Virus record (IMG/VR): IMGVR_UViG_3300046012_000505
Span: 1-64,000 of that record
Reading direction: 5' to 3' (one strand)
Length of the DNA: 64,000 nucleotides
Origin: a virus
Part shown: one piece after another, positions 22,669-36,254 of the stretch
How the letters are laid out: the number at the start of each line of letters is the position of its first letter
Numbering within the stretch: the stretch's first letter is position 1
Program-made: the position numbers and the translations under genes
The notes under the pieces: generated by a model
What the model saw: the letters and a program-made list of their open reading frames with translations, nothing else
Told to the model about the DNA's origin: nothing
Database searches by the model: none

Positions 22669-23583
22669 TTAGGAAGTCGGAAAACTTGCGTAGGCCGCTC
22701 TCGGATTATAATATCCGAAAGAGTACCGTTCGTATCCTTTTACGAGCAAGTTATCAGTGGTGAACTCTACCTGCATATCGGTCTCAAAAGCGATTCGCTC
22801 CATGTACGCGAGGCCCTTGATGTTGGTCAGCAGGAACCACGCGAAGGCGCTGGTCAGATAGTCGTTGACCAGGTAGCCCTCAGGCAGGCCACCGGCGGTG
22901 CTGCGGATCGCGTTCACGTCGTTGTCCGCGGTGCCGGGCCGGAGCTCGGTCTGCAGGAGGCGGATGGCGATCGGCTCGAGCTCGGGCGGGACGATGAGCT
23001 TGCGGCCGCGCGCGTGCATCTTCAGGTTGGCCTGATCGATGAAGTTGCGGCGGATCGAGATCATGGCCGACAGCAGGGTCGCCTCGTTGAGGTCGACCTG
23101 GACGCTCGGCGTGTTGGCGTACGTGTTGCCGTCGACCGGGTGCGCGGTCGAGAACAGCGCGACACCGTCGCCGCCGACCGCGCTGTTGAGCACGTTGCCG
23201 GTGTTCAGCACGTTGGCGCCGTAGATTTCCTTCGTCTGCGTGAAGGACTCCATGAGGCCGAGGTTCGACGGCTGGAACTGCGTCTTGTAGAGGTTGTCGT
23301 CGATCGCCTTGCGGGTGATCGCGTAGCCAAGAGCGATCTCGTTGTGCTCCTGGTTGAACGTGAACCGCTGGCCCGCGTTGTTGTCGAAGGTCGTTGCCTG
23401 ACCTTCGGTTTTCAGCGCGGCGAAGCCGAGATAGCGCGCCTCGACCGTGCGTTCGAGGGCCATCTCCGACTTCATGTAGTCGAAGATCTTGTCGTATTGC
23501 TTCTCGATCTGCTGATACTTGCCCGTGACCTCGCGGAGGCCCGGGAACAGCAGGTTGGCGATACTCGCGAGTGCGACCGGCAT
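22669..23583 (-). CDS. Major capsid protein
   Basis: 304 aa after scaffold; LFPGL, ALGYAITRKAIDDNLY, GDGVALFSTAHP, KLIVPPEL, ERYSFG. Confidence 0.9.
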   Translation of the reverse strand: MPVALASIANLLFPGLREVTGKYQQIEKQYDKIFDYMKSEMALERTVEARYLGFAALKTEGQATTFDNNAGQRFTFNQEHNEIALGYAITRKAIDDNLYKTQFQPSNLGLMESFTQTKEIYGANVLNTGNVLNSAVGGDGVALFSTAHPVDGNTYANTPSVQVDLNEATLLSAMISIRRNFIDQANLKMHARGRKLIVPPELEPIAIRLLQTELRPGTADNDVNAIRSTAGGLPEGYLVNDYLTSAFAWFLLTNIKGLAYMERIAFETDMQVEFTTDNLLVKGYERYSFGYYNPRAAYASFPTS

Positions 23584-28110: not shown

Positions 28111-28292
28111 GCGGGCGCTCCGGTGCGATAGCCGCGCGGCAACGCCGCAGCGGTGGTGCTATCGCGTTCCCGATCCCGGAGCGCCCGGCCTCGATCACGC
28201 TAAACCGCCCAACCGCCAACCGGAGCACCCGGAGGTTTGGCTGGACAACGCCAGAACTACACGATGCGTGGAGAAAGCGCAAGCGGCCTGGC

Positions 28293-28913
28293 TTAGCTCT
28301 CGAGCGGCACGTTCCAGTAAAGCCAACTGCCAAAGTCCTCGCGGACGTCGGTCGGTAGGAACTCCAGCCCGGCGCGCAGCAGTTCCGCCGCCGTCGGCTG
28401 ACGCGGCTCCTTGAGCGGCCGCAGCCGACCATGCGCCGCGATTACGCCGCGCCGGCCACTGTGGTTGGCGTCCTTGTCGCCCTTCACGCCGTTGCAGTCC
28501 AGGCAAGCCGTCAGGATGTTCGTCCAGACGGTCTTGCCGCCCTTCGAACGCGGGACGAGGTGATCGAACGTGAGCTCGTTCGAGGGAAACGGCCCACCGC
28601 AATACTGACACCGGAATCGGTCTCGCAGCAAAATCGAGCGCCGGCAGAATTTCGGGGCGCCCGACACCGGCGCATACTGGCGAAGCGCTACGACCTTCGG
28701 GACAGCGACCGTGCACGACGGCGAATGGAAGAACGCATCTTCCCACGTCTCGACGACAGTCACGCGATCGCGATACTGCGCATGCACGGCCGCCTGCGCC
28801 GAGATCAGCGACAACGGCCACGTCGACAGCGGCTGGAAATCGGCGTTGAGCACGAGCGTGCGAAGCCCGGCGGCCGGCAGCGGTCTTCGTTGGGCCTCGC
28901 GAGCGGTTTGCAT
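28293..28913 (-). CDS. HNH endonuclease (McrA-like) at the end of the tRNA array
   Basis: TLVLNADFQPL...RRSILLRDRFRCQYCG...TFDHLVPRSKGG...ACLDCN..KG. Confidence 0.9.
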   Translation of the reverse strand: MQTAREAQRRPLPAAGLRTLVLNADFQPLSTWPLSLISAQAAVHAQYRDRVTVVETWEDAFFHSPSCTVAVPKVVALRQYAPVSGAPKFCRRSILLRDRFRCQYCGGPFPSNELTFDHLVPRSKGGKTVWTNILTACLDCNGVKGDKDANHSGRRGVIAAHGRLRPLKEPRQPTAAELLRAGLEFLPTDVREDFGSWLYWNVPLES

Positions 28914-28929
28914 GGTCGTCTCCGATGGA

Positions 28930-29004
28930 TGGTGCCGGATGAAGGAATCGAACCCTCGCCGCCTGCGTACGAAACAGGAGCGCTACCACTACGCTCAATC
29001 CGGC
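28930..29004 (-). tRNA. tRNA-Thr(CGT)
   Basis: Cloverleaf, CCA encoded. Confidence 0.85.
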
Positions 29005-29009
29005 TATGC

Positions 29010-29084
29010 TGGTAGGGCCACGGAGAATCGAACTCGCGATCTACCGGTTAAAAGCCGGCAGCTCTGCCATTGAGCTATGGCCCC
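29010..29084 (-). tRNA. tRNA-Lys(TTT)
   Basis: Cloverleaf, CCA. Confidence 0.9.
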
Positions 29085-29090
29085 ATAGTT

Positions 29091-29167
29091 TGGTGCGCGG
29101 CCCGAGACTCGAACTCGGAACATCCGGGATTTGAAGCCGGCGCCTCTGCCTATTGGGCCAGCCGCGC
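29091..29167 (-). tRNA. tRNA-Leu(CAA), short variable loop
   Basis: Cloverleaf, A73, CCA. Confidence 0.8.
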
Positions 29168-29170
29168 GAT

Positions 29171-29246
29171 TGGTGGTCCCGCCGGGAGTCGAACCCGGAA
29201 TCTCCCGCTTCGGAGGCGGGCGCTCTGTCCATTGAGCCACGAGACC
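29171..29246 (-). tRNA. tRNA-Arg(CCG)
   Basis: Cloverleaf, CCA. Confidence 0.9.
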
Positions 29247-29250
29247 ATGT

Positions 29251-29322
29251 TGGCGACCCCGGCTGGATTCGAACCAGCAAAGGCGCGTTTAGAAGACGCG
29301 CGCGCATCCAATGCGCGGGGCC
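29251..29322 (-). tRNA. tRNA-Arg(TCT), reduced D-arm
   Basis: T-arm, anticodon arm and CCA clear. Confidence 0.75.
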
Positions 29323-29329
29323 ATGAAAT

Positions 29330-29407
29330 TGGCGCTCCCGGAGGGACTCGAACCCCCATTTTTCCAGATTCGTAATCTGGTGCCATCTCCAGTTAGGCGA
29401 CGGAAGC
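29330..29407 (-). tRNA. tRNA-Arg(ACG)
   Basis: Cloverleaf, CCA. Confidence 0.85.
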
Positions 29408-29408
29408 A

Positions 29409-29482
29409 TGGAGCCGCGGACGGGATTTGAACCCGCGTTGCGCTGATTGAAAATCAACTGTCCTACCTTAGACGACCGCGGC
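29409..29482 (-). tRNA. tRNA-Glu(TTC)
   Basis: Cloverleaf, CCA. Confidence 0.85.
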
Positions 29483-29486
29483 AAAA

Positions 29487-29561
29487 TGGTGGGCAACCGG
29501 CGAATCGAACGCCGCACATCTTGGATGTCGACCAAGCGCTCTGCCAATGAGCTAGTCGCCC
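29487..29561 (-). tRNA. tRNA-Val(GAC), C33
   Basis: Cloverleaf, CCA. Confidence 0.85.
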
Positions 29562-29566
29562 GTAAC

Positions 29567-29642
29567 TGGTGCTCCGTGAGGGACTCGAACCCCCGAATGC
29601 CTCGGTGTAAACGAGGTGACTTTGCCGCTTGTCGAACGGAGC
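29567..29642 (-). tRNA. tRNA-Val(TAC)
   Basis: Cloverleaf, CCA. Confidence 0.85.
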
Positions 29643-29744
29643 AAATTGAGTGCGGGGCGAGGGCGTGGCTGGCCATGTCACAGCCCTTTGGACTCGCGAT
29701 CTCGCCCCGCAGCGGACGACGCTCCTATCGCGCTCTCCGCAAGA

Positions 29745-29819
29745 TGGTCGGAGTGAGAGGAATCGAACCCCCATAGTCCTGCTCCCAAAGCAGGCGATCA
29801 GCCATTGACCCACACTCCG
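29745..29819 (-). tRNA. tRNA-Pro(TGG)
   Basis: Cloverleaf, C1-G72, CCA. Confidence 0.9.
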
Positions 29820-29823
29820 ATGA

Positions 29824-29899
29824 TGGTGCCCCCGACAGGATTCGAACCTGCGGCCTCCGAGTTAGGATCTCGGCGCACGTCCAATCGTGCTACGAGGGC
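29824..29899 (-). tRNA. tRNA-Arg(CCT)
   Basis: Cloverleaf, CCA. Confidence 0.9.
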
Positions 29900-29902
29900 A
29901 AT

Positions 29903-29980
29903 TGGTCAGCGTGGCAGGATTTGAACCTGCGGTCTCCTGCGTCCGAGGCAGGCACTTTTGCCAGGCTAAGCTACACGCTG
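29903..29980 (-). tRNA. tRNA-Pro(CGG)
   Basis: Cloverleaf, C1-G72, CCA. Confidence 0.9.
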
Positions 29981-29986
29981 AAAATC

Positions 29987-30063
29987 TGGCGCCCACGACG
30001 AGGATCGAACTCGCCGCAAACCGGATCGACAATCCGGCCCCGTCACCAGCTGGGTCCGTGGGC
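29987..30063 (-). tRNA. tRNA-Asp(GTC)
   Basis: Cloverleaf, G73, CCA. Confidence 0.85.
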
Positions 30064-30127
30064 ATGAAAGGTTCGCCGCGCTGCTGCTCATCAGGACCTA
30101 TGCAGCACGGCTACGCCGGCCGGCGAT

Positions 30128-30200
30128 TGGTGGCCCAGGTGGGGTTCTTACCCACATTGTCCTGCTTAAGAGGCAGGCCCGATTGTCCGGTCACTGAGCC
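30128..30200 (-). tRNA. tRNA-Lys(CTT), atypical T-loop TAAGAAC
   Basis: Acceptor, anticodon and T stems pair; CCA. Confidence 0.75.
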
Positions 30201-30207
30201 GTCGTGT

Positions 30208-30282
30208 TGGTAGTCGCGCGTGGAATCGAACCACGATCTCGCCCTTATCAAGAGCGTCCTCTGCCATTGAGATTACGCGACC
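30208..30282 (-). tRNA. tRNA-Ile(GAT)
   Basis: Cloverleaf, CCA. Confidence 0.85.
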
Positions 30283-30286
30283 AAAC

Positions 30287-30369
30287 TGGTGAGCCGGTGA
30301 GAAGTCGAATCTCTCCCCGAAGGAATGGATTTACAGTCCACCTGCCAGAACCGCTGGCTTTCCCGACCC
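30287..30369 (-). tRNA. tRNA-Tyr(GTA)
   Basis: Cloverleaf with variable arm, CCA. Confidence 0.85.
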
Positions 30370-30375
30370 GTGATA

Positions 30376-30449
30376 TGGAGCCCCAGCGCGGTACTGACCC
30401 GCGATACCCGCCTTACCAAAGCGGTGCACTGCCATTGTGCTACAGGGGC
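30376..30449 (-). tRNA. tRNA-Thr(GGT), atypical T-loop GTCAGTA
   Basis: Stems pair; CCA. Confidence 0.75.
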
Positions 30450-30452
30450 GAT

Positions 30453-30540
30453 TGGCGGAGCGGCGGGAATTCGAATCCCACACCGTGAGGTGCGCAGAGC
30501 TTAGCAGGCTCGCTCGGCGCCCTGACCGATTGCGCGCTCC
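30453..30540 (-). tRNA. tRNA-Ser(GCT)
   Basis: Cloverleaf with variable arm, G73, CCA. Confidence 0.85.
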
Positions 30541-30647
30541 ATACGTTTCCTCGAATACAGCCTCCTGCTGCGCACGATGCGCGGCCGGAAGATTCGCTCA
30601 CCGAGCGCCTTCGCCGCGGCGCTCCGGGATTTCTTCGGCTTGCGCAT
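30501..30647 (-). CDS. ArfA-like (alternative ribosome rescue factor A-like) peptide reading into tRNA-Ser(GCT)
   Basis: AAGGAG SD; MRKPKKSRSAAAKALGERIFRPRIVRSRRLYSRKR resembles the ArfA core (..L.DPLFRQRV..K....SY.RK); stop codon is in the tRNA anticodon loop. Confidence 0.6.
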   Translation of the reverse strand: MRKPKKSRSAAAKALGERIFRPRIVRSRRLYSRKRMERAIGQGAERAC

Positions 30648-30661
30648 GGCGCGCTCCTTGT

Positions 30662-30750
30662 TGGCGGAAGGCGGAGGAATCGAACCCCGATCGCTCATCA
30701 CGAACCCCTGGTTTTCAGGACCAGTTGCCAGCCATTTAGCGGCACCTTCC
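30662..30750 (-). tRNA. tRNA-Ser(TGA), C33
   Basis: Cloverleaf with variable arm, G73, CCA. Confidence 0.85.
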
Positions 30751-30755
30751 ATAAT

Positions 30756-30833
30756 TGGTACTCGCGGTCGGATTCGAACCGACACTGTCTTCCTTCTGAG
30801 GGAAGCGACTCCTTCCAGTTGGTCTACGCGAGC
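30756..30833 (-). tRNA. tRNA-Leu(CAG), short variable loop
   Basis: Cloverleaf, CCA. Confidence 0.85.
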
Positions 30834-30834
30834 A

Positions 30835-30911
30835 TGGTGCATGCGGAGAGATTCGAACTCTCACTTGACGGCTTCTCGAACCGCTTCCTCTGCCAGTTGG
30901 GATACGCATGC
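30835..30911 (-). tRNA. tRNA-Leu(GAG), short variable loop, C33
   Basis: Cloverleaf, CCA. Confidence 0.8.
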
Positions 30912-30913
30912 GT

Positions 30914-30988
30914 TGGTGCGGGCGTAGGGAGTCGAACCCTAAGAGCCTGGGGTTTAAGCCCGGCTGCGTCGCCGTGCGCCACGCCCGC
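30914..30988 (-). tRNA. tRNA-Leu(TAA), short variable loop
   Basis: Cloverleaf, CCA. Confidence 0.8.
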
Positions 30989-30993
30989 GTTGT

Positions 30994-31069
30994 TGGCGTC
31001 CCGTGGGGGAATCGAACCCACCGTTCCCGACTTGAGAGGCCGGTTTCCGAACCACTAGAAGAACGGGAC
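30994..31069 (-). tRNA. tRNA-Glu(CTC)
   Basis: Cloverleaf, CCA. Confidence 0.9.
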
Positions 31070-31073
31070 ATGA

Positions 31074-31144
31074 TGGAAGCCGGTGACGGTAGCGCGCCGC
31101 CCTCGGGAGCTTCAAAGGCTCCCTCACTCCTTGAGCAACCGGCC
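31074..31144 (-). tRNA. tRNA-Gln(TTG), degenerate T-loop and short D-arm
   Basis: Acceptor and anticodon stems pair; CCA. Confidence 0.65.
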
Positions 31145-31149
31145 AGAGA

Positions 31150-31224
31150 TGGAAGCGATCGGGGGAGTCGAACCCACCATCAGCGCGTTCAGAGCGCGCC
31201 GTCCTACCGTTGAACGAGATCGCC
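31150..31224 (-). tRNA. tRNA-Gln(CTG)
   Basis: Cloverleaf, CCA. Confidence 0.85.
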
Positions 31225-31225
31225 A

Positions 31226-31300
31226 TGGAGCCCGCGGCGCAGAATCGAACTCGCGTCGGCCAGGTACAGGCTGGCTGCTCTGCCACTGAGCTACACGGGC
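31226..31300 (-). tRNA. tRNA-Thr(TGT), C33
   Basis: Cloverleaf, CCA. Confidence 0.8.
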
Positions 31301-31303
31301 AAT

Positions 31304-31377
31304 TGGGGTGAAGCCGGGGATCGAACCCTGCTCTCCGCGTTCACAGCGCGGTGTCCTGCCACTGAACGAGCCTCACC
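31304..31377 (-). tRNA. tRNA-His(GTG) with G-1:C73
   Basis: Cloverleaf, CCCA end. Confidence 0.9.
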
Positions 31378-31384
31378 ATCGACT

Positions 31385-31456
31385 TGGAGTCGCAGTCGGG
31401 AATTGAACCCGACCGCGCGGTTTTGCAGACCGCGCCGTCCGCCTGGACACCGCGAC
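31385..31456 (-). tRNA. tRNA-Cys(GCA)
   Basis: Cloverleaf, U73, CCA. Confidence 0.85.
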
Positions 31457-31459
31457 AGT

Positions 31460-31530
31460 TGGCACCAGCGGAAGGAATCGAACCCTCGTCCAGGCGTTTG
31501 GAGTGCCTGTTGGCGCCACGCCACGCTGGT
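31460..31530 (-). tRNA. tRNA-Trp(CCA)
   Basis: Cloverleaf, G73, CCA. Confidence 0.85.
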
Positions 31531-31533
31531 AAT

Positions 31534-31610
31534 TGGCTCCTCACCCAGGACTCGAACCTGGAACGACGAGATTAACAGTCTCGCTCCCGTGCCGACCGGG
31601 ACCGTGAGGA
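31534..31610 (-). tRNA. tRNA-Asn(GTT)
   Basis: Cloverleaf, TCC start, G73, CCA. Confidence 0.9.
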
Positions 31611-31618
31611 ATAAAACT

Positions 31619-31694
31619 TGGAGCGGACGGCCGGAATCGAACCGTGCTTAGGGCGGTTTGGAAGACCGCTGGGCAGCCAATGCCCCACATCCGC
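31619..31694 (-). tRNA. tRNA-Gly(TCC)
   Basis: GCG start, U73, CCA. Confidence 0.85.
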
Positions 31695-31697
31695 AAT

Positions 31698-31773
31698 TGG
31701 TGCCGCCCCTCGGGATCGAACCGAGATATCCGGTTCTTCAAACCGGCGCCTTGACCACGTCGGCCAGAGCGGC
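31698..31773 (-). tRNA. tRNA-Phe(GAA)
   Basis: Cloverleaf, CCA. Confidence 0.9.
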
Positions 31774-31885
31774 AAATGGGAAACAGGAGGTCTGACTGGT
31801 GAGGCCAGTATTCTCCTGCCCGGCATCGCGACAGACAGGGGACCACCCTGCCCGCCCTAGCCCCATCGTGCGCCAATCGGCGCGT

Positions 31886-31957
31886 TGGTTGCAGCGGTCG
31901 GAGTCGAACCGACGCGACTGAGTTTATGAGACTCAGCGGGAACCGTTCCTCACTGCA
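31886..31957 (-). tRNA. tRNA-Met(CAT), U1-A72
   Basis: Cloverleaf with short D-arm, CCA. Confidence 0.8.
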
Positions 31958-31958
31958 A

Positions 31959-32053
31959 TGGTAGTCGTCGTAGGTTTCGAACCTACCCGTTCCAGGCCGT
32001 CCGCCCGGTCTCGCGCGCTTATAAGGCGCACCCGCTCACCAGAGCCGACGACC
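31959..32053 (-). tRNA. tRNA-Ile(TAT) with long variable arm
   Basis: 7-bp acceptor, TTCGAAA T-loop, loop CT-TAT-AA, ~25-nt variable region. Confidence 0.8.
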
Positions 32054-32058
32054 AAATA

Positions 32059-32132
32059 TGGAGCGTCCGCCGGTAATCGAAACCGGTCCTTCTCGTTGGC
32101 AACGAGAGGCTCGACCCTCGAGCTACGGACGC
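32059..32132 (-). tRNA. tRNA-Gly(GCC)
   Basis: GCG start, U73, CCA. Confidence 0.9.
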
Positions 32133-32136
32133 GAAT

Positions 32137-32211
32137 TGGTGGACCTATGGGTAGTCGAAACCCAAGACAGTGATCTTGCAAAGATCGCCCGCTGTTCCGC
32201 AGCTTAGGCCC
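32137..32211 (-). tRNA. tRNA-Ala(TGC)
   Basis: G3:U70 present, CCA. Confidence 0.85.
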
Positions 32212-32323
32212 ATAGCGGCACGCATGGCTGCGCGCCGCGAAATTCTGCCGACGCTTGAAACCAGCCTGCCCCGCCGGTCCGCATCTCTGCGGGTTTGATC
32301 GGAGCCGAACTACAAGCCGCCGT

Positions 32324-32360
32324 AACAAACAAAAAACCCTCTCCGGGTGAGGGAGAGGGC
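32324..32360 (-). terminator. Intrinsic terminator (attenuator) between promoter and tRNA array
   Basis: GCCCTCTCC-CTCACCC-GGAGAGGGT followed by TTTTTGTTTGTT. Confidence 0.85.
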
Positions 32361-32389
32361 TTGGTCTTCGTGACCTGTGGTGCTGCGGT

Positions 32390-32527
32390 TTACGCGCTCC
32401 ACCCCTCTCCGGTCGTACCCATCCCGTGATTTCTCGCGGGTTGATAGGCGCACGCAATGGCGAACCGCCGGACCGATCGCGTCGGTTCCGGAAGTATCTG
32501 CCAGGCGGTTGTGCGTAACGATTTCAT
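32390..32527 (-). CDS. Leaderless 45-aa attenuator leader peptide MKSLRTTAWQILPEPTRSVRRFAIACAYQPARNHGMGTTGEGWSA
   Basis: ATG 7 nt after the -10 box; 3' end carries CCGGAGAGGG, identical to the terminator 3' arm. Confidence 0.7.
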   Translation of the reverse strand: MKSLRTTAWQILPEPTRSVRRFAIACAYQPARNHGMGTTGEGWSA

Positions 32528-32534
32528 GTGGGGG

Positions 32535-32563
32535 AAGATGCTCGCGAGTTGCGGCGGTGTCAA
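32535..32563 (-). promoter_or_regulatory. Sigma70-like promoter of the tRNA operon
   Basis: TTGACA-N17-CATCTT. Confidence 0.75.
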
Positions 32564-35569: not shown

Positions 35570-35998
35570 TTAGCGGCGAGAGAATAGCACGGGTGCCCGG
35601 TCGAGGGTAAGGGCCGCTGGCGACCCTCGGCTGGCGCCGGAATGGCCCGCCAACTCCCGCTCCATAGCGCGGCGCATCGCCGCGCGCCTCGACGCCTTCG
35701 CCCGCCCGCGGGCCAACGCCTCGGCAGGCGCGGCAAGGGAGCAGAGCGTTTCCGGGAGATCGCGCCCTCTATAGGCAGCAACGAACTCTTCCGCCGTCAT
35801 GTCGCCCTTGACGTTGTTGCAGCGGTAGCAAGCAGCGACGATGTTGCGGGCGCCACGACCGCCCCGCGAGCGCGGGAGGACGTGGTCGCGGGTGACGCTA
35901 TTCGGGCGGCCGTAGGCCAGCACCATCTCGCGCCGGCAGTAGTGGCAACGGCCGCGGGATCGCTGGAAGAGGTGATTCAGAGAAGGTCCAGAAGGCAT
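35570..35998 (-). CDS. HNH endonuclease
   Basis: CHYC...TRDHVLPRSRGG...NIVAACYRCNNVKG. Confidence 0.85.
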   Translation of the reverse strand: MPSGPSLNHLFQRSRGRCHYCRREMVLAYGRPNSVTRDHVLPRSRGGRGARNIVAACYRCNNVKGDMTAEEFVAAYRGRDLPETLCSLAAPAEALARGRAKASRRAAMRRAMERELAGHSGASRGSPAALTLDRAPVLFSRR

Positions 35999-36254
35999 GG
36001 CACACTCGCGCGACGCAAACGACAGGGCGACCAACTAGGATCGCTTCAACCACTGTCCGCGTTTTGCGTGCGAGCGCTGCATGATGGTCCCGTATAGCAA
36101 ATAGCCTGGCCGCACGACAGCCAAAACTAACGCGGTGGTCGACGCCTTTGCGGGGATGATCTTCCCGGGGCCCGCATTCAAAGCGCCTCTTTAATAGGGG
36201 TCGTTACCTTCCCGAAACTGACGCCACCGCTCGCCTGCCAGCATTTCCCCCGAA

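Follow-up and report, generated by a model that had tools for sequence, protein, structure and literature searches.

The window analysed here is a stretch of 64,000 nucleotides (nt), positions 1 to 64,000 of the IMG/VR virus record IMGVR_UViG_3300046012_000505, and the element in question is an array of 36 tRNA genes followed on the same strand by a gene for an HNH endonuclease, which together with the upstream leader occupies 28293-32563. Comparison with related loci indicates that this element is probably a horizontally mobile tRNA-array cassette, that is, a 'tRNA array unit' with its own HNH gene. It belongs to one well-delimited family, recognisable by a fixed order of more than 30 tRNAs and by a specific HNH clade, which appears to move between unrelated soil phages and alphaproteobacterial chromosomes. 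Since large HNH-linked tRNA arrays have already been described, the core finding is an ordinary one.

Recurrence and borders of the cassette

The 36 tRNA genes all lie on the minus strand between 28930 and 32211, within 3282 nt, and the array thus exceeds the minimum of at least 20 dense one-strand tRNA genes by which tRNA array units are recognised. The HNH gene (28293-28913, minus strand, 206 aa) is intact and co-oriented with the array, and it starts 16 nt past the last tRNA. Matches to PF14279 (5e-15), PF01844 (6e-14) and phrog_16726 (6e-27) confirmed the terminal HNH gene reported in the first-pass annotation of this DNA, and the GC content at third codon positions (GC3) was coding-like at 0.81.

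Relatives of this HNH gene in IMG/VR had a tRNA array directly upstream in 10 of 10 contigs. Five close relatives among them (65-68% identity) kept the isotype order of the window, the common order being Ala-Gly-(UAU)-Met-Phe-Gly-Asn-Trp-Cys-His-Thr-Gln-Gln-Glu-Leu...Ser-Ser-Thr-Tyr-Ile-Lys-Asp-Pro-Arg-Pro-Val-Glu-Arg-Arg-Arg-Leu-Lys-Thr-HNH. A metagenome scan added more than 20 further soil contigs with a syntenic array and HNH gene, and a scan of GTDB placed the cassette in contigs of four metagenome-assembled genomes (MAGs) assigned to Alphaproteobacteria (one of them 697 kb), Rhodospirillales, Acetobacteraceae and Stellaceae. At 59-75% identity, HNH relatives always sat 3′ of a syntenic array.

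Similarity to the related loci was confined to the cassette itself. By blastn it ran from 28295, at the HNH stop codon, to approximately 32192, inside the first tRNA, and no further; at the 3′ border DNA similarity ended at 28295-28314. Among 19 window proteins encoded around the array, only the HNH protein recurred beside related arrays, bar one 85-aa match in the L082/L095 contig. The first-pass annotation had called the locus possibly mobile, and this proposal is strongly supported by the presence of array and HNH gene in many unrelated contexts and by the abrupt loss of similarity at the cassette borders.

The same annotation had suggested comparing related phages at the portal junction. 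No array was present beside the portal gene in 80 portal relatives (at most 51% identical) or in phage MW202675. The same phage was present as DNA contigs in sequencing run X1, and DNA contigs of approximately 89%-identical relatives from soil runs X3 and X4 carried the array between the same flanks. The insertion is therefore older than these strains.

More distant HNH relatives (31-38% identity) were also seen in jumbo-phage contigs of 148-536 kb (L087-L091, L134, L135 and L144), in which a tRNA array ended with a phage tmRNA and the HNH gene came immediately after.

The tRNA set and its atypical members

With default settings ARAGORN placed 31 tRNAs in the genome, every one of them within 28930-32211 on the minus strand. 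Relaxing the threshold to ps90 added Lys-CUU, Ser-UGA and Gln-UUG, and ps75/85 added Tyr-GUA and Ser-GCU; each of these five fills a gap in the array of exactly tRNA size. Rfam independently matched 29 of the 36. The 36 anticodons are all distinct and cover the 20 amino acids by anticodon assignment, and CCA is encoded in every tRNA (36/36), the predicted boundary of the His tRNA being one base off. The genes are tightly packed: 32 of 35 gaps between tRNAs measure 1-8 nt, the long gaps being 64, 102, 112 and 121 nt. These results bear out the earlier description of 36 densely packed, co-oriented, CCA-encoded tRNAs for all 20 amino acids.

Listed in the direction of transcription, all on the minus strand, and matched by both ARAGORN and Rfam unless stated otherwise, the array opens with tRNA-Ala(UGC) (32137-32211, within which the similarity to related cassettes begins at ∼32192) and tRNA-Gly(GCC) (32059-32132). 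A type II tRNA with anticodon UAU (31959-32053; ARAGORN, with Rfam below threshold) and a tRNA(CAU) that carries the sole Met-type anticodon (31886-31957; ARAGORN only) come next. Beyond a spacer of 112 nt the array continues with tRNA-Phe(GAA) (31698-31773), tRNA-Gly(UCC) (31619-31694), tRNA-Asn(GUU) (31534-31610; ARAGORN only), tRNA-Trp(CCA) (31460-31530; ARAGORN only), tRNA-Cys(GCA) (31385-31456), tRNA-His(GUG) (31305-31377), tRNA-Thr(UGU) (31226-31300), tRNA-Gln(CUG) (31150-31224), tRNA-Gln(UUG) (31074-31144; relaxed ARAGORN only) and tRNA-Glu(CUC) (30994-31069). Three type I leucine tRNAs, with anticodons UAA (30914-30988, 75 nt), GAG (30835-30911, 77 nt) and CAG (30756-30833, 78 nt), precede the type II tRNA-Ser(UGA) (30662-30750; Rfam and relaxed ARAGORN).

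The spacer of 121 nt separates this serine tRNA from the second one, the type II tRNA-Ser(GCU) (30453-30540; relaxed ARAGORN only), at whose 5′ end (30541/30542) similarity to the relatives begins. It is followed by tRNA-Thr(GGU) (30376-30449), the type II tRNA-Tyr(GUA) (30287-30368; Rfam and relaxed ARAGORN), tRNA-Ile(GAU) (30208-30282) and tRNA-Lys(CUU) (30128-30200; Rfam and relaxed ARAGORN). After a 64-nt spacer come tRNA-Asp(GUC) (29987-30063), tRNA-Pro(CGG) (29903-29980), tRNA-Arg(CCU) (29824-29899) and tRNA-Pro(UGG) (29745-29819). The last block, beyond a spacer of 102 nt, consists of tRNA-Val(UAC) (29567-29642), tRNA-Val(GAC) (29487-29561), tRNA-Glu(UUC) (29409-29482), tRNA-Arg(ACG) (29330-29407), tRNA-Arg(UCU) (29251-29322; ARAGORN only), tRNA-Arg(CCG) (29171-29246), a fourth type I leucine tRNA with anticodon CAA (29091-29167, 77 nt), tRNA-Lys(UUU) (29010-29084) and, as the last of the array, tRNA-Thr(CGU) (28930-29004).

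By standard wobble this set would decode 54 of 61 codon types, which make up 91% of the codons of the phage; with four-way U34 wobble in the family boxes, the figures rise to 60 of 61 codon types and 99.8% of phage codons.

Ser-GCU was the weakest call. In an alignment of nine homologues, 18 of its 22 cloverleaf pairs showed compensatory changes, a pattern that marks it as a genuine conserved tRNA. Other members of the set depart from the usual tRNA structure. The UAU tRNA is 95 nt long and of type II, with a long variable arm, a 4-nt D-loop and A73; against Rfam it was Sec-like with 34 bits, below threshold, and it is kept with compensatory changes in seven related arrays (L082, L086, L092, L100, L111, L113 and L146). 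The label 'Ile' given to it in the first-pass annotation follows from the anticodon only, from which the amino acid is not derivable, and its reading as an isoleucine tRNA was not upheld. All four Leu tRNAs (4/4) are of the short-arm type I and 75-78 nt long, as they are in the arrays that hold the UAU homologues, and tRNA-Leu(CAG) shares 73-80% DNA identity with tRNA-Leu genes of Pseudomonas, Streptomyces and Mycobacterium phages. Gln-UUG has an odd T-loop, and its position matches that of Gln(UUG) in the relatives. The long-arm UAU tRNA and the short-arm Leu tRNAs, together with a covarying hairpin of fixed loop described below, are conserved oddities that could reveal new tRNA biology.

The single Met tRNA announced by the first-pass annotation is present as the one CAU tRNA, with U1-A72 and without the GGG/CCC anticodon stem; it is not initiator-like, and no initiator-type tRNA was found among the 36. 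Neither a tmRNA (ARAGORN) nor genes for RF-1-domain or Pth proteins were found in the phage genome. In view of these absences the earlier term 'self-contained' for the operon is overstated.

Proposed function and alternative explanations

The array and the HNH gene would be transcribed as one precursor, which host RNase P and 3′ processing enzymes would cut into tRNAs. An intrinsic-terminator-like hairpin upstream of the first tRNA would insulate the cassette from the late genes that precede it, and the cassette would use a separate promoter. The HNH enzyme, by analogy with SegB in T4, may spread or maintain the cassette by cutting cassette-less DNA, with recombinational repair to follow. The benefit to the phage would be a near-complete private tRNA pool for late protein synthesis when host tRNAs are depleted or cleaved. 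Such a pool, spread by the HNH enzyme, is the functional reading best supported by the sequence comparisons and by the precedents, and a role in counter-defence against tRNA-cleaving systems is plausible.

Phage tRNAs have been shown experimentally to overcome tRNA-targeting defences (PMC10264068, PMC11555353). SegB mobilises and amplifies the tRNA region of T4 and T6 (PMC2330249, PMC13096335), and a homing nuclease amplifies a tRNA region under pressure from a tRNA-cleaving defence (PMC13096335). Both the SegB region and that of T5, with its F-Tfl HNH enzymes, have a free-standing nuclease gene that lies in a co-transcribed tRNA cluster and aids the inheritance or amplification of the region, and the cassette of the window would resemble them in these respects. 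They differ in that SegB is a GIY-YIG enzyme in a cluster of 8 tRNAs, whereas here an HNH gene follows 36 tRNAs.

Additional genes within related cassettes point in a similar direction. On the 697-kb alphaproteobacterial MAG contig, a gene for an RtcB RNA ligase (4e-133; L159:8678-9898) separates the last tRNA from the HNH gene, and a TROVE/Ro60-like VWA protein is encoded in another cassette (L084:7077-8585), which also carries extra HNH genes. Further cassettes contain a Fic/DOC protein (L092:8639-9031) and a DUF7873 protein (L085:1491-2225). The RtcB, Ro60-like and Fic cargo fits a theme of RNA damage, in this case damage to tRNA. A cassette family with RNA-repair cargo supports the view that tRNA arrays belong to a conflict over tRNA cleavage, and the cassette offers a defined unit for cloning and testing against tRNA-targeting defences.

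Bacteria possess an RNA-repair operon, rsr-yrlBA-rtcBA. The related cassettes resemble it in joining tRNA-like RNAs with RtcB (L159) or with a TROVE/Ro60-like protein (L084); unlike that operon, the window copy has no repair genes and its RNAs are ordinary tRNAs. Matches to the YrlA model of Rfam reached 21-24 bits and so fell below its gathering score of 69. Beyond the window, at 77684-78181 on the plus strand, the phage's own genome encodes an Rnl2-type RNA ligase domain (PF09414, E = 1e-18).

The closest known systems are the tRNA array units of mycobacteria, their plasmids and mycobacteriophages, described by Morgado & Vicente in 2018 (PMC5966550) and covered for viruses by a later survey (PMC6409571). 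The gene most often associated with these units is HNH, different replicons share the synteny, and some units include tmRNA, RF-1-domain or Pth genes (PMC5966550, PMC6409571). The likeness extends to dozens of dense, co-oriented tRNAs for most or all amino acids, an HNH gene, isotype synteny across replicons, cargo that at times relates to ribosome rescue or to RNA, and structured RNAs within the array. The window also has a Leu-Leu-Leu-Ser sub-block that resembles the one in Bixzunavirus mycobacteriophages. The present family differs in occurring in soil Alphaproteobacteria and their phages rather than in Actinobacteria, in the position of its HNH clade at the 3′ end of the array and in the cargo of its relatives (RtcB, Ro60/TROVE-like and Fic), while the window copy is without tmRNA, RF-1 and Pth.

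The classical account of phage tRNAs, discussed in PMC6409571 and PMC10264068, is codon compensation, in which the tRNAs supplement the host pool or widen the host range with no link to defence. The distribution of the cassette over phages and MAGs of several alphaproteobacterial families fits such a host-independent aid to translation. The composition of the array does not: there is one tRNA for each of the 36 anticodons with no enrichment for particular codons, and matching tRNAs are present even for the nearly unused codons TTA, AGA and ATA (0.2, 1.1 and 2.3 per 1000 phage codons, respectively). A replacement pool fits this composition better than a tuned compensation. The cargo of related cassettes likewise points to RNA damage and repair and not to codon bias, and we regard codon compensation as unlikely.

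A purely selfish element, in which the HNH gene drives its own inheritance and the tRNAs are hitch-hikers of little or no benefit, some of them perhaps decaying, would account for the sharp borders of the cassette in unrelated contexts and for the highly polymorphic tRNA junctions, which hold partial tRNA duplicates, pseudo-tRNA-like spacers and inserted nuclease genes; several tRNAs also score poorly. Yet more than 30 isotypes keep their order although the HNH proteins are only 59-75% identical, and compensatory changes preserve the cloverleaves, in Ser-GCU as in the type II UAU tRNA. Conserved order and compensatory change together indicate purifying selection on the tRNAs, which argues against pure hitch-hiking and makes a purely selfish element very unlikely.

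Four observations weigh against a mobile cassette that serves as a private tRNA pool. No empty site and no cassette-less close relative of the phage were found, the relatives in X3 and X4 also carrying the cassette. HNH relatives of approximately 35% identity in the cultured phages RHph_TM30 and PA5oct (Rhizobium, Pseudomonas) have no adjacent tRNAs, so that the link between HNH gene and array is confined to a subclade. Downstream of the terminator no promoter was identified. Finally, the type I Leu tRNAs, the type II UAU tRNA, Gln-UUG with its odd T-loop and the five tRNAs detected only at relaxed thresholds may include some that are inactive or have another role.

Leader, small open frame and inserted elements

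The first-pass annotation had interpreted the locus as an inducible translation-rescue operon, in which a leader-peptide attenuator with a promoter at 32563 gates the expression of the array and of an ArfA-type rescue factor encoded within it. In this model RNase P would cut at the 5′ end of tRNA-Ser(GCU) and leave the mRNA of that factor without a stop codon, and the peptide would accumulate only when trans-translation fails. We consider this model, in its two parts jointly, quite unlikely, for reasons that differ between the leader and the small open frame.

In the leader, the terminator is real. A hairpin with a U-run lies at 32334-32362 (minus strand), approximately 125 nt before the first tRNA, and a hairpin with a T-run occurs 75-160 nt before tRNA-Ala in six related cassettes (L082, L086, L100, L116, L117 and L146), all with different sequences. 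The conserved position indicates that the terminator is part of the cassette architecture. An 8-10-nt copy of its 3′ arm, as an antiterminator would provide, is found 51 nt upstream, a copy this good arising in 9 of 1000 shuffles, and the same arrangement is seen in L117 (17 of 1000 shuffles). The region 32209-32563 is moreover 97-99% identical between the window and the X3 and X4 relatives, compared with approximately 88-89% for pieces of the portal and HNH genes from X3; this high identity hints at a remaining constraint on the leader.

The remaining parts of the attenuator model are weak. The antiterminator-type repeat is absent from six of eight arrays, being limited to the window and one of seven relatives, and blastn detected no similarity of the leader to any related cassette. 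The 45-codon leader frame (32390-32527, minus strand) is probably non-coding: its GC content by codon position is 0.52/0.63/0.67, the last figure comparing with 0.78-0.91 in phage genes, and it has no family match. The promoter put forward in the first-pass annotation, TTGACA-N17-CATCTT (32535-32563, minus strand), remains putative at best, with a -10 box that agrees at 3 of 6 positions and was not flagged by a consensus scan. Thus the terminator of the supposed attenuator stands, the case for induction through it is weak, and an insulating terminator followed by a separate promoter is the simpler reading.

The small open frame, P0001 (30501-30647, minus strand, 48 codons), has several properties of a gene. 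It begins with AAGGAG-N7-ATG; codons 1-35 lie in the 121-nt spacer between the two serine tRNAs, and 14 of these 35 residues are K or R. The frame then runs 38 nt into tRNA-Ser(GCU), sharing the first 38 nt of this gene, and ends at a TAA in the anticodon loop, with no stop codon before the 5′ end of the tRNA at 30540. By hand count GC3 over codons 1-36 is 0.83 (30/36), like that of phage genes. A search of 1.8 billion proteins yielded one homologue, P0003, encoded on a 577-nt contig of the European Nucleotide Archive (ENA), with 61% identity over 42 residues (E = 2.4e-5). P0003 has the same MRKP start and also reads into a Ser-type tRNA, apparently at the same nucleotide.

ArfA (PF03889) of E. 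coli and BrfA of Bacillus subtilis are small proteins that rescue ribosomes and are translated from mRNAs lacking a stop codon (review, PMC8012679), and rescue genes are carried by tRNA arrays elsewhere (PMC5966550). The frame of the window resembles them in being small, very basic and stop-less before a predicted processing site, and in a loose [LI]FRxR[IV]...YxRK pattern, IFRPRIV...YSRK by eye against LFRQRVE...SYMRK in ArfA. It differs in the proposed cut, which would be made by RNase P at the 5′ end of a tRNA rather than by RNase III in a hairpin as for ArfA, in its length of 35 residues against ∼55 and in the lack of detectable homology. No ArfA match to P0001 was found in Pfam at E values up to 10, in a six-frame search of the genome or among chains matched in PDB, and the unfiltered ArfA model gave 1-2 bits. 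The Phe that aligns with F25 of ArfA is Cys in P0003.

Nor is the frame conserved in related cassettes, most of which lack it. In four of them (L082, L086, L111 and L113) the gap between the serine tRNAs is 0-5 nt and the frame is absent; L159 has no second Ser tRNA, and L084 and L117 have tRNA remnants at this junction. A frame at the same place in L083 was not detectably similar to P0001, and tblastn with the P0001 and P0003 peptides against 1.6 Mb of related loci gave no further homologue. ESM Atlas returned for the small peptide only unnamed small-protein clusters, below the recognition mark, and a predicted complex of residues 1-36 with Caulobacter RF2 scored 0.02, which gives no answer either way. 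The one locus returned by a scan of viral contigs with the alignment of the frame (L158:2870-2977) was a 53%-identical look-alike that arose by chance, from a phage primase gene read in an alternate frame, and calls for caution with motif-level matches among short basic peptides.

Conservation at the RNA level could also explain the two conserved blocks, MRKP and RPRIVRS, since their coding sequences form the opposite strands of a predicted hairpin in which the AUG is buried. In addition, 9-12 nt of the start region of the frame repeat the 5′ end of tRNA-Ser. We considered the spacer as a decayed tRNA-Ser and rejected this origin: its match to the tRNA 5′ end is limited to the first 12 nt, and similarity beyond these is not significant. 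Of the ArfA-like frame described in the first-pass annotation, then, the open frame itself and its arfA-like stop-less layout stand, and the homology is not supported. Translation of P0001 is possible, in our estimate slightly short of an even chance. That its product is a rescue factor is improbable, and equally improbable is a reading in which the 35-residue peptide (MRKP...LYSRKR) would be a new, non-homologous ArfA/BrfA analogue on mobile tRNA cassettes and would help to free stalled ribosomes for the phage tRNA set. If the stop-less frame were functional, it would represent a new route to non-stop-regulated factors.

The overlap itself has precedents. As with segB of T4 and nuclease genes of T5, the frame takes its stop codon from the next tRNA gene, and in 2008 tRNA maturation was proposed to cut the T4 segB mRNA ahead of its stop codon and so to damp expression (PMC2330249). 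The frame that enters the tRNA here is a 48-codon basic one and not a nuclease gene.

Tail addition after such a cut would not create a stop codon. In mitochondrial tRNA punctuation, coding frames abut tRNAs, mRNA ends arise from tRNA excision and polyadenylation completes the stop codon; a cut at the 5′ end of tRNA-Ser(GCU) would leave ...CGU AU, to which an added A would give AUA.

Structured elements occur at three other junctions of the array, in agreement with the structured spacers of the first-pass annotation. The 102-nt spacer (29643-29744, minus strand) is strongly structured, with a folding z-score of -3.9 (0 of 200 shuffles fold as well), and the 112-nt spacer (31774-31885, minus strand) has a z-score of -2.6. 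Both are unique to this phage: Rfam gave no match to them, and related arrays hold nothing equivalent. At the first junction the relatives have 1-7 nt, except for L083 (81 nt, tRNA-like) and L084 (a large insertion of 1228 nt), and at the second they have 2-10 nt.

The third element is a hairpin (30075-30111, minus strand) in the 64-nt spacer between tRNA-Lys and tRNA-Asp (30064-30127), with a 10-bp stem and a 17-nt loop beginning AUAGGUCC. It recurs at the same junction in four related arrays (L083:8902-8932, L093:9221-9257, L100:4210-4242 and L159:7923-7965). Across the five arrays the stems measure 8-14 bp and all differ in sequence, whereas the loop of 15-17 nt is conserved as AUAGGUCC-N-RRGCR. 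This pattern marks the hairpin as a genuine covarying element. Rfam gave no match to it, and other arrays of the family lack it. A hammerhead ribozyme suggested by CUGAUGAG in its loop was discarded, the motif being absent from the homologous hairpins and Rfam giving no match. The P0001 frame, the Lys-Asp hairpin and the additional structured spacers are best seen as optional elements inserted where tRNAs adjoin, and not as core parts of the cassette.

An inverted repeat brackets the array. Its 27-nt arm in the leader (32232-32258) pairs with 28634-28660 inside the HNH gene (24 of 27 positions complementary), with a score of 18, where the best of 200 shuffles reached 13. L146/L165 has a similar pairing of 22 nt, which eight other arrays lack, and the repeat was accordingly dropped as a general feature of the cassette.

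The whole virus contig is 101,002 bp long, with a GC content of approximately 66% and an estimated completeness of approximately 89% (CheckV). Its source is a high-GC soil phage, with Alphaproteobacteria as the likely hosts. Upstream of the array lie the genes for the large terminase, a second HNH endonuclease and the portal protein (PF23899), and downstream are genes of unknown function followed by the major head protein gene (22669-23583), which agrees with the earlier placement of the array between portal and head genes. The second HNH gene (35570-36034, minus strand), between large terminase and portal, is only distant kin of the cassette HNH gene. A 15-bp palindrome, TYCACR-N3-YGTGRA, has 11 sites in the window with at most one mismatch, compared with 1.7 expected. 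One of these sites, at 28258-28272, falls between the HNH stop codon and the next gene, and is probably a regulatory site belonging to the downstream genes.

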